64,000 bases of DNA from an uncultured Methanoregulaceae archaeon (GTDB lineage Archaea > Halobacteriota > Methanomicrobia > Methanomicrobiales > Methanospirillaceae), in the NCBI GenBank assembly GCA_963841015.1, contig CAWJAX010000005.1, positions 512,001-576,000 on the forward strand, written 5' to 3'. Position 1 is the stretch's first letter. Each line of letters opens with the position of its first letter. The notes under the pieces are model-generated. The model was not told the origin of the DNA and made no database searches. It was given only the letters and a program-made list of their open reading frames with translations. Both the position numbers and the translations under genes were made by a program. Positions 50,773 through 58,437 of this stretch are shown piece by piece.

Positions 50773-51669
50773 ATGACGAACATCCCTGAACCGTATGTCA
50801 TACACTACCCGCGGATTGTGGCAGTAGCTGATGAAGCAGGCAGTCATGTGGAGCTCATTGAGTTCTTTGACTGTGTTGGCGGGGCAATGTGGTCAAAGCA
50901 CCACTATGCCCAAAGCCCGGTGGTAAAAAATGTCCGCTGTGTTGGCCAGACCATGCGGTACCTCTTAACCACGGGTACCGTGGACCTTGCTCTTGAAGGA
51001 TCCAGGTTTCCGGCCGGTATCTCCTCGTGCATTGTCGAAAAATCTGAGATCGCTGTCACCTACATCGGAATGGGTGGGGGCGGGGTAGGTGCAGCAGCAT
51101 GCCGTTCTGATGCAGCTGGTGTCCTGCGGAGCAGGTGCGATGAATCCGGGGGTGGGAAAGTTGCCGGTTCCACGATATGGCTGCCCCGCATGCAGCGGGT
51201 TCTCATTGGTGTCGATGATACTGATACCCCTGACGAGGGAGCCACGTGGACGCTTGTCCATAATATTGCAAAAGCGGTTGAGGATGAGCATTCGGTATAC
51301 CTCTCGCACACGATAGTCCAGCTCTTCCCGGTGCCGTACCGTACCAAGAACTGTGTGAGTCTTGTGGCAGAGTTCGCGACAACGGATACCAAGGGACTGA
51401 CAGAAAGGTTCCGGCAACTCCTCGAACGGTACACTCTCTCCCAAAAAACGGGGATGGCAGTCTATACCGGGTTTACACTCTCAGAAAAACTGCTTGAATA
51501 CGGGCGAAATGTCAAACGGGGAGAGATTAAACCGGGAGTGCTCGGAGGCCTGGATGACAAAAACCTGCAGATAATACTGGATGGCAGGGGCATAATCGGG
51601 GCGGTTGCCGCCATCCCTTTTTACACCCGGTACGAGGAGGCGCTGGAATTATGCAGTGGACGGACCTGA
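50773..51669 (+). CDS. mmp11: Methanogenesis marker protein 11 (C-terminal half resembles the TiaS IGxDDTD domain)
   Basis: PY...Y..I, C.GG..W..HHY, GMGGGGVGA..CR, IGVDDTD, KNC, GRGIIGAVAA. Confidence 0.8.
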   Translation: MTNIPEPYVIHYPRIVAVADEAGSHVELIEFFDCVGGAMWSKHHYAQSPVVKNVRCVGQTMRYLLTTGTVDLALEGSRFPAGISSCIVEKSEIAVTYIGMGGGGVGAAACRSDAAGVLRSRCDESGGGKVAGSTIWLPRMQRVLIGVDDTDTPDEGATWTLVHNIAKAVEDEHSVYLSHTIVQLFPVPYRTKNCVSLVAEFATTDTKGLTERFRQLLERYTLSQKTGMAVYTGFTLSEKLLEYGRNVKRGEIKPGVLGGLDDKNLQIILDGRGIIGAVAAIPFYTRYEEALELCSGRT

Positions 51670-52620
51670 AAGCCCGGCTTCTGGCGGTTGGTCAGGCACA
51701 CCTGACCGGTGAACCGGCAGAAAACTATATCGCCCGTTCAGCTGCAGGTACCCGGTGCCGGTGGCAGCGGTGCAGTTTTTTTTGCCATGGGAAGTCACCG
51801 GGTCAAGCTTGCGCTCAGCCCGGTAAGCAGTATCGAGATTGCACACCGTGGCAACGGAACTGCCGATCTGTTCTTTGAAGGACAGAAAATCTCCGGACAC
51901 CTGCTGGAACCCGGGTTCCATTGCCCTGATCAGGCTTTTATCACCGTGACCGGCAGCTGCATTTTTTCCTGCAGCTATTGTTCCGTCCCCCGGATCGGGG
52001 GAAAACGCAAGACCATCAAAGAGATCACAGCGATGGTGGAATCGGTACGTGACCATATCCATGCAATCTCCATAACAAGCGGGGTCCTCACGAGCATTGA
52101 AGAAGAAGAGGCCTATGTTCTTGAAGTGGTAAAACACCTCGCTTCGTTTAACCTGCCTGTTGGTGTCTCCATCTACCCGACCACAACGACACCCGACCGG
52201 TTAAAGGAGCTGGGCGTGGCTGAGGTGAAATTCAATCTCGAAGCGGCAACCCCGGAACTGTTTTCTCAGATGTGCCCGGGTCTGGATTACGGGGTACTCT
52301 GGCAGGTACTGGATCGCTCGGTGAAGCTGTTCGGGAAAAACCGTGTCTTTTCCAATGTCATCATAGGCCTGGGGGAGACTGATGCGGAGCTGGAAACCTG
52401 TATCCAGAAGCTGACAGCGCTCGGGGTGATTCCGGTTCTGCGCCCACTCAATCCGGTAGCCGGGCTTGCAGGCTCACCACGGCCATCTGCACAACGGCTG
52501 ATGAAAATCTTTGCCATACATGCACGGGCTCTTGACCAGGCTGGTCTTGATCCAAAACTTGCAGTTACGATGTGCACGAATTGTGCAGGTTGTGATCTCG
52601 TGCCGGGGAGGGACCAATGA
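51651..52620 (+). CDS. Radical SAM protein, BioB/LipA-like (frameshift near 51750)
   Basis: SAAG-PGAGG after joining the frames, HCP, CIFSCSYC, KFNLE, IIGLGETD, C-terminal MCTNCAGCD. Confidence 0.8.
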
Positions 52621-56678: not shown

Positions 56679-57475
56679 TCTTTCCGGAACAGTGCAAGCA
56701 GGTCGGGTATGCTGCAACAAAACCCTGCGGTGACAAGGTCTATTTCCTGAGCCGCTACCTGGTGCGGGACACGGGTGACGGGTATGAGCTGCTCGAAATC
56801 ACGCTTGATTCTGCAGGGAAAGGTCTGATGCGTACAATTGTGGCGTCCAACGTGGTCGCAACTGCAAAGGAAACGTACCGTTACCCCGAAAAAGTGCAGA
56901 TCCATGACCGCACGCGACTTATCAGGCTTGCACGGGATACGGGCTTTCGCTGCACGATCTTTACCGGGCTTGACGAACATATGACGTTCGTGCTTGACCC
57001 TGATATCTCCGGGCTGCTTGAGATCCATGTTTATGATGTAGCGCCTCCCCGCCCGAGTCTCTCTTCCTGTATCCGGGAGCTGGAGTCTGACGGGCTCTTT
57101 GGGGATCTTTCGGTCACGTTCTGCCACCATACCCGCGATATCACGCAGGTCCAGGCGGATGTCTACCCCTGTCGTGCCGCAGGGTATACCCGTACGCTCG
57201 ATGCCGACCCGATGCAGGGGGGGGAACGGGTAGCCGGGTGCCAGACAGGTTCACAGTTCTACACCGAATGCTACGGGAAGGACTTTGCGCTTGAGAATAT
57301 CTGCCCGCTGGAATCCGTGCAGGAGGAACCGTTCATAGCCCGTTGTTGTCGCTCCGAACGTGCAGGTACAGGGATCTCTAAAGGGAAGTTTGGAGCCGTA
57401 GTCCACTGGGGTGCAAATCCGGCACAGATCGCCCGTGCGGTGAATGATCTGGCAGTGGAGTGGAGGAAGCAATGA
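56675..57475 (+). CDS. Uncharacterised Cys-rich protein embedded in the aks operon
   Basis: 266-aa ORF overlapping both neighbours by 4 nt (ATGA); YFLSRY, DEHMTFV, YPCR, GC, ICP, RCCR, VHWG motifs. Confidence 0.75.
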   Translation: MIFPEQCKQVGYAATKPCGDKVYFLSRYLVRDTGDGYELLEITLDSAGKGLMRTIVASNVVATAKETYRYPEKVQIHDRTRLIRLARDTGFRCTIFTGLDEHMTFVLDPDISGLLEIHVYDVAPPRPSLSSCIRELESDGLFGDLSVTFCHHTRDITQVQADVYPCRAAGYTRTLDADPMQGGERVAGCQTGSQFYTECYGKDFALENICPLESVQEEPFIARCCRSERAGTGISKGKFGAVVHWGANPAQIARAVNDLAVEWRKQ

Positions 57476-58437
57476 CCCGGATCGCGATTGTTGAAGGTGA
57501 TGGTATCGGCCATGAGGTGATCCCGGTTGCACAACAGGCTCTTGAACTGCTCCATCCCGAATACGAATTCTTCGCAGTTGATGTCGGGTACCACCGCTGG
57601 GAACAGACCGGATGCCCGTGTGCAGATCACGATATTGCGGAACTGAAGACCGCAGATGCAATCCTCTTTGGTGCGATCACGACACCCCCGATGAAGGATT
57701 ACCAGAGCGTAGTGCTGCGGCTGAGAAAAGCGCTCGATCTCTACGCAAACCTGCGGCCGGTCAAAGGGAACGGGTTCGATATCATGATCGTGCGGGAAAA
57801 TACCGAAGGACTCTATTCCGGTATCGAACAGGTCAGCAATGACCGGGCAACAACCCTCCGGGTGGTGTCCCGGCGGGGTACTGAGCGGATCGTGCGTGCT
57901 GCAATCCGGCTCGCACTACGGCGGAGCGGCAGGCTGACTATCGGACATAAGGCAAATGTGCTCAAATCCGATGTATTGTTCCGTGACATCTGCCTTGCCG
58001 AAGCGAAAGCAGCGGGTGTTTCCTGCAATGACAAATACATCGACGCTCTCGCGCTGGACATCCTCCAGCATCCCGCGTCGTATGATGTCGTTGTCACGAC
58101 GAACATTTTCGGGGACATCCTTTCAGACGTGGCTTCGTATCTTGTCGGGGGACTGGGGCTGGTGCCCAGTGCCAATATCGGTGACCACCATGCCCTTTTT
58201 GAACCTGTGCATGGGAGTGCCCCGGATATTGCCGGCAAAAATATCGCCAACCCGATCGCTGCCCTGCGGAGTGCAGGCATGCTCCTTACCTATTGTAATG
58301 ATCCATCAGGATCAGGGAGGATCGAAGAAGCAATACAGGAAGTACTTGCAGAAGGCATCCGGACCCGGGATCTTGGTGGTTCAGCCGGGACCCGTGAGTT
58401 CGGGAATGCGGTGCTCCGCAGGCTCCAAAAAATATAA
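57472..58437 (+). CDS. aksF: Homoisocitrate dehydrogenase
   Basis: GDGIGHE, LYANLRP, RENTEGLY, HKANV, FEPVHGSAPDIAG. Confidence 0.85.
   Translation: MTRIAIVEGDGIGHEVIPVAQQALELLHPEYEFFAVDVGYHRWEQTGCPCADHDIAELKTADAILFGAITTPPMKDYQSVVLRLRKALDLYANLRPVKGNGFDIMIVRENTEGLYSGIEQVSNDRATTLRVVSRRGTERIVRAAIRLALRRSGRLTIGHKANVLKSDVLFRDICLAEAKAAGVSCNDKYIDALALDILQHPASYDVVVTTNIFGDILSDVASYLVGGLGLVPSANIGDHHALFEPVHGSAPDIAGKNIANPIAALRSAGMLLTYCNDPSGSGRIEEAIQEVLAEGIRTRDLGGSAGTREFGNAVLRRLQKI

Follow-up and report, generated by a model that had tools for sequence, protein, structure and literature searches.

A conserved archaeal gene cluster with candidate enzymes for the thiol arm of coenzyme B

Which genes complete the synthesis of coenzyme B (CoB), and might some of them lie interleaved with those for its early steps? 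CoB is required by every methyl- and alkyl-coenzyme M reductase, that is, for all biological methane formation and for the anaerobic oxidation of methane and alkanes. To our knowledge, the genes assigned to its synthesis cover only the first part; enzymes of the AksA, AksD/E and AksF families lengthen 2-oxoglutarate to 2-oxosuberate. The question is raised by a stretch of 64,000 nucleotides (the window) from an uncultured Methanoregulaceae archaeon, positions 512001-576000 of contig CAWJAX010000005.1 in assembly GCA_963841015.1 (G000:C5:512001-576000). The source genome comprises 2.28 Mb in five contigs and is 94% complete. At 50773-58437 on the plus strand, the window carries eight co-directional genes in the order Mmp11-rSAM-TPP-aksA-aksD-aksE-DUF7714-aksF, where rSAM stands for a radical S-adenosylmethionine enzyme and TPP for a thiamine pyrophosphate enzyme. 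Genomes (G), contigs (C), loci (L), sequencing runs (X), genera (g) and families (f) are cited below by working handles.

A preliminary description, made from the letters of the window, had read this cluster as a candidate complete CoB operon in which the four genes interleaved with aksADEF are the missing CoB enzymes. Profile matches agree with the eight same-strand genes and the families then read for them. We put at roughly 55% the probability that the operon serves the CoB thiol arm, with the TPP enzyme and the DUF7714 protein acting on the Aks product. That all four genes would complete the CoB pathway in Methanomicrobiales, Methanosarcina and Methanoperedens-type archaea seems, from the comparisons reported here, rather doubtful.

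A literature search that had subscription journals and supplements outside its range returned no assignment of late CoB genes and no mention of DUF7714, PF24830, TIGR03280 or methanogenesis marker 11. In the June 2026 NCBIfam, Mmp11 is named as a marker protein only, and there is no model for the TPP protein or for the archaeal DUF7714 protein. Excerpts of a 2025 report state that the CoB pathway “is still unknown” (Chadwick et al., PMC12068725).

Candidate enzymes of the cluster

The gene between aksE and aksF (56675..57475) encodes a cysteine-rich protein that matches PF24830 (DUF7714) with 303 bits over positions 1-280 of 280. The bacterial enzyme XcbA itself scores 294 bits on PF24830, so that both proteins belong to one Pfam family. 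According to excerpts of its published characterization, XcbA carries a redox-active [2Fe-2S] cluster and reduces sulfoethanethioaldehyde to coenzyme M (CoM), and by the same account no homologue with a known function could be identified (PMC9457059). On the narrower NCBIfam model NF052538 (XcbA_fam) the window protein reaches 59 bits, under the cut-off of 150, and we therefore call it a sister subfamily and not XcbA.

Several comparisons bear on this relationship. A tblastn search of plasmids with the DUF7714 protein matched five records only, all from CoM-using alkene- or epoxide-metabolizing bacteria or their relatives. The match in Xanthobacter autotrophicus Py2 is Xaut_5051, immediately upstream of a phosphosulfolactate synthase gene and with two fumarate-lyase-type genes and an ACC-deaminase-type gene as further neighbours, which is the position of xcbA in xcbA-E. 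When a profile of 17 archaeal DUF7714 sequences was aligned with XcbA by hhalign, the probability was 98.7% (E 2.3e-16, 228 columns). Five cysteines (C166, C189, C210, C224 and C225) are invariant in the 17 archaeal sequences, and all five pair with cysteines in XcbA. The two proteins are also of similar length, and both are encoded in a thiol-cofactor operon.

These likenesses have limits. Identity between the two proteins is only ~24-28%, a conserved HWG in the archaeal protein corresponds to PWG in XcbA, the archaeal gene is linked to aks genes rather than to xcbB-E, and its presumed substrate is a C7 carboxylate instead of a C2 sulfonate. An AlphaFold2 (AF2) model of the DUF7714 protein has a mean predicted local distance difference test score (pLDDT) of 88.9, yet a Foldseek search of the Protein Data Bank with this model gave no match at E≤1e-3 (best TM-score ~0.2); with no solved fold relative there, Foldseek offers no mechanistic lead. 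A protein atlas search with the same protein returned no usable match, and its named relatives in the protein database, from Methanosarcina, Methanoregula and Candidatus Methanoperedens, are all annotated as hypothetical or DUF7714. We regard the DUF7714 protein, from its homology to XcbA, as a strong candidate for an Fe-S thioaldehyde reductase that forms 7-mercaptoheptanoate.

The gene immediately upstream of aksA (52617..53888) encodes a single-chain TPP enzyme of the 2-oxoacid:ferredoxin oxidoreductase (OFOR)/IorA type. It exceeds the cut-off of PF02775 (40 versus 21.9 bits) and misses that of IOR_alpha (TIGR03336) by a wide margin, with 156 bits in two stretches against 650.9. An alignment of 18 syntenic orthologues reveals an invariant NEK glutamate (E41) in a Pyr-type domain at the N terminus, four invariant cysteines (C270, C273, C295 and C412) and the PP-domain motif GD...H.G...N (G330-D331...N359). 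The four cysteines and the GD...N pattern presumably mark the TPP-proximal [4Fe-4S] cluster and the TPP/Mg site of OFORs.

The N-terminal Pyr domain, the C-terminal TPP-binding domain, the GD...N motif and the four cysteines are all shared with IorA/OFOR alpha subunits. However, the window protein has 423 amino acids against ~600 in the IorA paralogues of the same genomes, a Pfam scan found no Fer4 domain in it, and no beta-subunit gene adjoins it. Furthermore, ~100 residues of the middle domain are missing from the enzyme in the window's order, which is why the TPP profile match is split in much of that order. The enzyme is a strong candidate for a 2-oxosuberate decarboxylase. A complex prediction for the TPP enzyme with Mmp11 scored 0.00 against a mark of 0.32 and is used here neither for nor against an interaction.

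The four aks genes are accompanied elsewhere in the source genome by a separate leuA/cimA and leuCD-leuB set, which marks those of the cluster as an additional set, of the aks type. The product of aksA (53869..54997; homocitrate synthase type) matches the HMGL-like and HCS_D2 domains in two pieces, in two frames, and its frame is intact in contigs from public sequencing runs. AksD (54997..56211; homoaconitase large subunit type) passes TIGR01343 (hacA_fam; 456.5 bits versus a cut-off of 385.7), scores 413 bits on the equivalog HacA_Meth, under its cut-off of 550, and is 44% identical to the genome's own LeuC paralogue. AksE (56208..56678; homoaconitase small subunit type) passes LEUD_arch (TIGR02087; 162.6 versus 108.95 bits), and its scores on HacB2_Meth (156.6) and HacB_Meth (142.6) are both under the cut-off of 230. 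Its loop reads GRYLRTKD, in agreement with the YLRT loop noticed earlier, versus GRFLTIYD in the genome's own LeuD; we take this loop, from work on Methanocaldococcus jannaschii, to be the specificity determinant of the small subunit. AksF (57472..58437, with an alternative GTG start at 57460; homoisocitrate dehydrogenase type) passes PF00180 (Iso_dh, 307 bits) as its sole model, missing both LEU3_arch (380.5 versus 409.8) and AksF2_Meth (326.9 versus 540), and is 32% identical to the LeuB paralogue.

Compared with AksA, AksD/E and AksF of M. jannaschii, which synthesize 2-oxosuberate, the window proteins belong to the same superfamilies, pass the subfamily models hacA_fam and LEUD_arch, have the YLRT loop and likewise accompany a separate set of leu genes. 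They differ in that the “type 2” models (HacB2, AksF2) outscore type 1 for them, and in that their genes are clustered whereas those of M. jannaschii are dispersed.

The first gene of the cluster (50773..51669) encodes Mmp11, which passes TIGR03280 (344.4 versus 255.8 bits) over profile positions 1-291 of 292 and also PF22641 (TiaS_TCKD, 46 versus 27) and PF08489 (TiaS_FLD, 29 versus 21). Profile residues 137-283 match chains 3u02, 3au7, 3amt and 4rvz of TiaS, the tRNA-Ile2 agmatidine synthetase. Foldseek agrees: with an AF2 model of pLDDT 89, the top nine matches are all TiaS (3amt E 1e-7, root-mean-square deviation 2.4 over 149 columns), which bears out the TiaS-like fold suggested in the preliminary description. 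A GxDDTD motif aligns with TiaS in the 3u02 alignment.

The likeness is confined to the TCKD+FLD module, an ATP-using kinase module that makes up the C-terminal half of Mmp11 (residues ~137-283). Mmp11 has ~300 amino acids rather than 400-440, only residues ~2-170 of TiaS are matched, the C-terminal part of TiaS with its tRNA-binding domains has no counterpart in Mmp11, and Mmp11 passes a separate family model, TIGR03280. Conversely, the N-terminal half of Mmp11, ~135 residues, is a domain of its own without a TiaS counterpart. It bears a weak likeness to ACT-type domains (aspartate kinase 2cdq, E 3e-3, probability 0.72; SerB2), so a threonine-binding ACT-like domain is, from the model, only a lead. 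TiaS phosphorylates a carbonyl oxygen with ATP, after which an amine displaces the phosphate. Linking 7-mercaptoheptanoate with threonine calls for chemistry of this type; we propose that role for Mmp11, and a place among the late CoB enzymes seems plausible. Several genomes of the order carry another Mmp11-like open reading frame (ORF), with 28-39% identity, directly upstream of Mmp11 (L002:15597-16070, L003:5682-6137, L006:13853-14353, L007:13560-14438 and L033:2060-2917); ftr occupies this place in the window.

The radical SAM enzyme (51651..52620; its listed ORF begins at 51709 owing to a 1-nt insertion at 51749) passes PF04055 (55.7 versus 29.5 bits). All 33 homologues compared share its CX3CX2C motif (C84/88/91) and a C-terminal CX2CX2C (C289/292/295). 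Both the radical SAM core motif and a second cysteine triad for an auxiliary cluster recall BioB, LipA, LipS2 and MSMEG_0568, and among solved structures biotin synthase 1r30 and lipoyl synthase 5exi come nearest. Nevertheless, the protein is under all named cut-offs (LipS2 68 versus 270, BioB 31 versus 225, LipA 23-30 versus 203-310 bits, and a weak match to MSMEG_0568), far so for BioB, LipA and LipS2, from which it also differs in the C-terminal CX2CX2C of its auxiliary motif. The Mmp11-adjacent radical SAM enzymes of f8, f16 and f31 approach the MSMEG_0568 family (220-275 bits). That the clustered enzyme acts late in CoB synthesis is plausible.

A pathway can be drawn from these candidates, following an order of CoB intermediates that R. 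H. White reportedly proposed. AksA, AksD/E and AksF, whose families are established in this reaction, would make 2-oxosuberate from 2-oxoglutarate. The TPP/[4Fe-4S] enzyme would decarboxylate 2-oxosuberate to 7-oxoheptanoate, a C7 aldehyde that would form a thioaldehyde with sulfide, and the DUF7714 Fe-S protein, by analogy with its homologue XcbA, would reduce the thioaldehyde to 7-mercaptoheptanoate. Less securely, Mmp11 might use ATP and its TiaS-type module to phosphorylate an oxygen of a carbonyl or carboxyl group, activating the carboxylate of 7-mercaptoheptanoate for the amide with threonine, or else phosphorylate the product. The weakest step is that of the radical SAM enzyme, which may act with Mmp11 in sulfur supply or insertion or in another step on the same substrate. 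The preliminary description had seen matching chemistry in the four genes; with a homologue of XcbA among them, the match is closer than it had supposed.

Conservation, distribution and natural losses

If the eight genes serve one pathway, their association should recur in other genomes. A survey of named loci covered the closest 80 from an Mmp11 profile scan of genome contigs, all of the Methanoregula type. The full eight-gene order is present in 64 of these, and the other 16 end at contig ends, leaving none discordant. The same full order occurs in families f1, f2, f3, f4, f5 and f6 of the window's order. Elsewhere the cluster is shuffled: f7, f24, f30 and f34 have an aksE-DUF7714-aksF sub-cluster, and f10 and f14 have aksD-aksE-aksF-DUF7714 with a divergent aksA and a TPP gene beside it. 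Mmp11 is directly followed by the TPP gene in loci of f7, f24 and f30; by coordinates, the two are adjacent in 37 of 37 genomes of f7, 8 of 8 of f24 and the single genome of f30 (46/46). Mmp11 also adjoins a radical SAM gene in f14, f16, f8, f17 and f31. Of 19 foreign loci with DUF7714, 17 have it next to aksE or aksF; in the other two, both from f3, it lies beside Mmp11 or the radical SAM gene.

The linkage to aks genes is thus not unique to one genome, as the earlier description allowed that it might be, and several independent arrangements tie the four genes to each other and to aks, a pattern expected of a shared pathway rather than of genes brought together by accident. Chance co-location is rejected on the conservation counts. 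Gene fusions of the Rosetta-stone kind, suggested by long open frames, were rejected after seven loci were checked, in each of which every gene has its own frame or lies behind a stop. A search for longer fused proteins with the Mmp11 and DUF7714 profiles gave no matches, which is weak evidence.

As assembled, six of the seven gene junctions overlap, with ATGA common to the rSAM/TPP, aksD/aksE, aksE/DUF7714 and DUF7714/aksF junctions, a 20-nt overlap at TPP/aksA and a 1-nt overlap at aksA/aksD. The statement that each gene overlaps the next failed for the assembly as given at one point, a 39-nt gap between Mmp11 and rSAM that disappears once the insertion at 51749 is removed. With the insertions removed, all seven junctions overlap (ATGA four times, 19-20 nt twice, 1 nt once), as in close relatives and as is typical of a translationally coupled operon.

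Two genes of the cluster are broken in the assembly. The radical SAM gene has one extra letter at 51749 relative to the close relatives L038, L039 and L104, in which its frame extends upstream to an ATG corresponding to window position 51651, overlapping the Mmp11 stop. The two frames of aksA are due to one extra T at 54073 compared with L038 and L104, where the gene is intact with 376 codons including the stop (375 amino acids); the window aksA is 96% identical to that of L038 at the nucleotide level, with the sole gap at 54073. Contigs of four public runs, all four examined, omit one letter at both 51749 and 54073. In the same assembly the essential mcrA (window 34005-35697, minus strand) is spread over at least three frames, and the genome's own leuC (G000:C4:75113-76298) over two. 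Because the run contigs omit the letters and mcrA and leuC are also frame-broken, both breaks are most likely single-base assembly insertions, and with such errors in the assembly, broken genes of the window should not be read as pseudogenes. A pseudogene reading of aksA and the radical SAM gene, which are intact in relatives, was dropped.

Distribution was counted in a single fixed set of 301 genomes from the phylum, with M. jannaschii as a control and the sole representative of other phyla. DUF7714 is present in 135 of 136 genomes of 13 families, including that of the window, and in 0 of 165 others; the exception is a 60%-complete f10 assembly. In the 13 families mcrA was found in 125 of the 136 genomes. 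AksF-level matches (≥296 bits) and TPP orthologues of at least 450 bits are confined to the same 13 families, and TPP-profile matches of ~300 bits in other families are ~600-aa IorA paralogues. Some families that lack DUF7714 have intermediate TPP relatives of ~500 aa, whose scores of 344-362 bits lie below those of the orthologues linked to aks and above those of IorA paralogues (G030:C1:1767814-1769229 and G196:C50:5006-6418 in f19; G230:C1:3097-4575 in f31).

Mmp11 and its radical SAM partner range more widely. Mmp11 is above its cut-off in 150 genomes; by E-values its holders are the core families, 12-13 of 46 genomes of f8, three of four of f16, and one each of f17 and f31. The radical SAM family extends further, to 174 genomes at E≤1e-12. 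Mmp11 and mcrA coincide, being held by the same 5 of 11 genomes in genus g20 and by the same three of four in f16. It looks as though the TPP/DUF7714 route is specific to Methanomicrobiales, Methanosarcina and Methanoperedens-type lineages, and the Mmp11-rSAM pair older and wider.

Natural losses divide the eight genes in an informative way. Two genomes of one f3 genus, G189 and G294, are 97-99% complete but have no AksF-level match, AksD or TPP orthologue, and just one LeuC-type gene (38% identity). An aksA-like gene (54% identity) is present in G189, and none in G294. In G189 a tight Mmp11-rSAM-DUF7714 cluster persists (L033:2060-5656), and in G294 the same three genes lie within 2.7 kb (C23:1721-4358). 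The sister species G224 and G289 keep all genes, which indicates that the TPP gene was lost along with the aks genes, and this co-loss fits a TPP role directly on the Aks product. It also fits a split of the eight genes into an upstream module, aksADEF with the TPP gene, and a downstream module of DUF7714, Mmp11 and rSAM. G189 and G294 may have to obtain CoB or a C7/C8 precursor from outside.

Competing explanations

A number of observations weigh against the CoB reading, or at least against its broader form. Forty-two mcrA-positive genomes lack both DUF7714 and the TPP orthologue (five in f8, five in f12, 24 in f15, three in f16, two in f20, two in f29 and one in f32), and in M. jannaschii mcrA and Mmp11 are present but nothing matches PF24830; the pair consequently cannot be a universal route. 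Strong Mmp11 is absent from 34 mcrA-positive genomes (f12, f15, f20, f29 and f32) and present in 11 genomes with no mcrA match (G047, G057, G065, G073, G210, G235, G270 and G280 of f8, G059 of f17, G230 of f31 and G126 of f15). The idea behind marker families is presence only in methane-metabolizing archaea, and with strong matches lacking mcrA as well as mcrA lacking a strong match, Mmp11 is not so restricted. Several of the genomes with Mmp11 and no mcrA are single-contig or 99% complete, and the radical SAM gene is mostly adjacent to Mmp11 in those examined.

The clustered radical SAM enzyme is, by its tree, a duplicate specific to the order, and the ancestral copy is unlinked in f7, f10, f24 and f30 and found also in f15 and f12, which lack Mmp11. 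Every equivalog-level NCBIfam Aks model scores below its cut-off, and since the TPP enzyme keeps the four oxidoreductase cysteines, oxidative decarboxylation to an acyl product fits equally. Excerpts of one paper furthermore suggest the COG1900 enzymes MMP16 or L-ASST for CoB synthesis or its thiol (Chadwick et al., PMC12068725).

Copies of the radical SAM gene outside the cluster show features of their own. An ancestral-type copy is kept in many genomes, including the source genome (G000:C2:222764-223648; 41% identity). In the tree this copy groups with those of f15 and f12, apart from the other second copies in its order, and it shares a neighbouring gene with f15 loci; lateral transfer is possible. 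Apart from that gene, no neighbour common across families was found around the stand-alone copies.

The mcrA-positive genomes outside the 13 families are themselves informative. In five of five that were tested for a YLRT-type AksE, one from each of five families, it is absent; the tested f15 and f20 genomes have no second LeuD-type gene; and the AksF level is reached in none of the mcrA-positive families lacking DUF7714. These families are therefore also without the early genes in their known form, which implies another route or CoB import. Because CoM synthesis likewise differs between methanogen classes, as excerpts of two papers indicate (PMC9457059, PMC12713407), a class-specific CoB route would be no oddity.

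What, then, are the alternatives to a CoB thiol operon in which all four genes take part? Two modules may have come together, with the TPP and DUF7714 genes joined to Aks for the CoB thiol and Mmp11-rSAM serving some other methanogen-type process as a co-regulated or historical neighbour. Such a division, which we consider unlikely but worth retaining, accords with the Mmp11-rSAM pairs that stand alone among housekeeping genes in f8, f16, f17 and f31, with the affinity of the stand-alone radical SAM enzymes to MSMEG_0568, and with the occurrence of Mmp11 in 11 genomes without mcrA and, without DUF7714, in M. jannaschii. It is harder to reconcile with the adjacency of Mmp11 to the aks-linked TPP gene in all 46 genomes of three families, with its place in the aks cluster of six more, with the continued union of Mmp11-rSAM and DUF7714 in G189 and G294 after aks loss, and with the way Mmp11 tracks mcrA within g20 and f16. 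A diversion of 2-oxosuberate or a shorter 2-oxoacid to another product, such as a thiol, a lipid or, by oxidative decarboxylation and then BioB-like sulfur insertion, pimeloyl units for biotin, earns little credence from us; the preliminary description had itself named a pimeloyl/biotin branch as an alternative. The oxidoreductase type of the TPP enzyme with its four cysteines and the biotin synthase likeness of the radical SAM enzyme would suit it, but DUF7714 and TPP occur only in mcrA-bearing families and in none of the 165 other genomes, many of them complete, a restriction that biotin does not share. The cluster contains no bioF-, bioA- or bioD-like gene, and in the DUF7714 family the sole characterized protein converts a thioaldehyde into the thiol of a cofactor, as excerpts of its description indicate (PMC9457059).

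The thiol formed might also be assigned differently. That DUF7714 makes the CoM thiol as XcbA does, rather than that of CoB, is very improbable: the shared Pfam family and cysteine pattern are compatible with it, as is a 94%-complete source genome with no gene over the MMP16 (TIGR03287) cut-off and one COG1900 (HcyBio) gene (G000:C3:450953-451966), but all 19 foreign loci link DUF7714 to aks or Mmp11-rSAM and none to com genes. Methanosarcina acetivorans, moreover, has DUF7714, yet MMP16 is its primary CoM synthase according to excerpts of the report on that enzyme (PMC12068725). Alternatively, the COG1900 enzymes MMP16 (ComF) or L-ASST might themselves make the CoB thiol, leaving DUF7714 as an electron carrier or Aks accessory. 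This is improbable in our estimate, although the same excerpts relate that a double MMP16/L-ASST mutant was unobtainable even with CoM, and the source genome has one such gene. The COG1900 proteins resemble the DUF7714 protein in proposed aldehyde-to-thiol chemistry and in a suggested CoB role, but they belong to an unrelated family (PF01837), present as a single copy outside the cluster. The homology of DUF7714 to a catalytic thioaldehyde reductase and its invariant CC pair with three further cysteines argue for a catalytic protein; the two ideas are also compatible, COG1900 delivering the sulfur and DUF7714 carrying out the reduction.

The reading of TPP and DUF7714 as thiol-arm enzymes is the one we prefer, and the claims of the preliminary description can be narrowed to match. 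Its proposal that the four genes are the missing CoB enzymes draws support from linkage, from XcbA homology and from restriction to mcrA-bearing families, and is weakened by the 42 mcrA-positive genomes without DUF7714 and TPP. In the profiling against mcrA that it had called for, DUF7714 is present in 135 of 136 genomes of mcrA-bearing families and absent from those 42. A complete CoB operon is not upheld, given the non-universal DUF7714/TPP pair, the 11 genomes with Mmp11 and no mcrA, the lineage-specific radical SAM duplicate and the published MMP16/L-ASST alternative.

Genomic setting and implications

As the preliminary description noted, the cluster lies beside other genes of methanogenesis. 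Upstream are ftr (49554-50468), a polyferredoxin gene with hdrC/B/A (44195-49028, minus strand; hdrCBA) and, ~15 kb away, mcrA. Downstream are a PEGA domain protein and ABC transporter genes, which are unrelated. Among genomes of the window's order that were compared (G064, G254, G183, G219, G072, G214, G239, G135 and G120), the distance from the cluster to the mcr operon is 13-70 kb. The nearest named relatives of the window are Methanoregula/Methanoregulaceae assemblies, with up to 94% amino acid identity in Mmp11 and 96% nucleotide identity in aksA.

Of 30 bins, 29 are covered by metatranscriptome contigs of run X15 and 26 by those of run X16, at a likeness of at least 92%; the uncovered bins carry no weight. 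Contigs of these RNA runs cross junctions at 51154-51922 and 54715-55212 (X16) and at 56543-56795 and 57291-57566 (X15). The cluster is present in RNA libraries, but only that can be said, as contigs cannot prove that the genes share one transcript and such libraries may contain DNA.

The cluster provides concrete, conserved and testable candidates for late steps of CoB synthesis, one of them homologous to a characterized thiol-forming enzyme. What has been found is a cofactor operon built from known superfamilies in roles not earlier assigned to them. If the assignments are true, the making of C6/C7 chemicals could draw on a native 2-oxosuberate decarboxylase, heterologous expression of methyl-coenzyme M reductase could be backed by an engineered supply of CoB, and methane mitigation would gain new targets. 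The thiol-forming enzymes of bacterial CoM and archaeal CoB would then share ancestry and family, and methane archaea would possess at least two non-homologous routes to CoB, as they do for CoM. The patchy distribution predicts a second CoB route or CoB scavenging in lineages like the anaerobic methanotrophic ANME-1 and in others.

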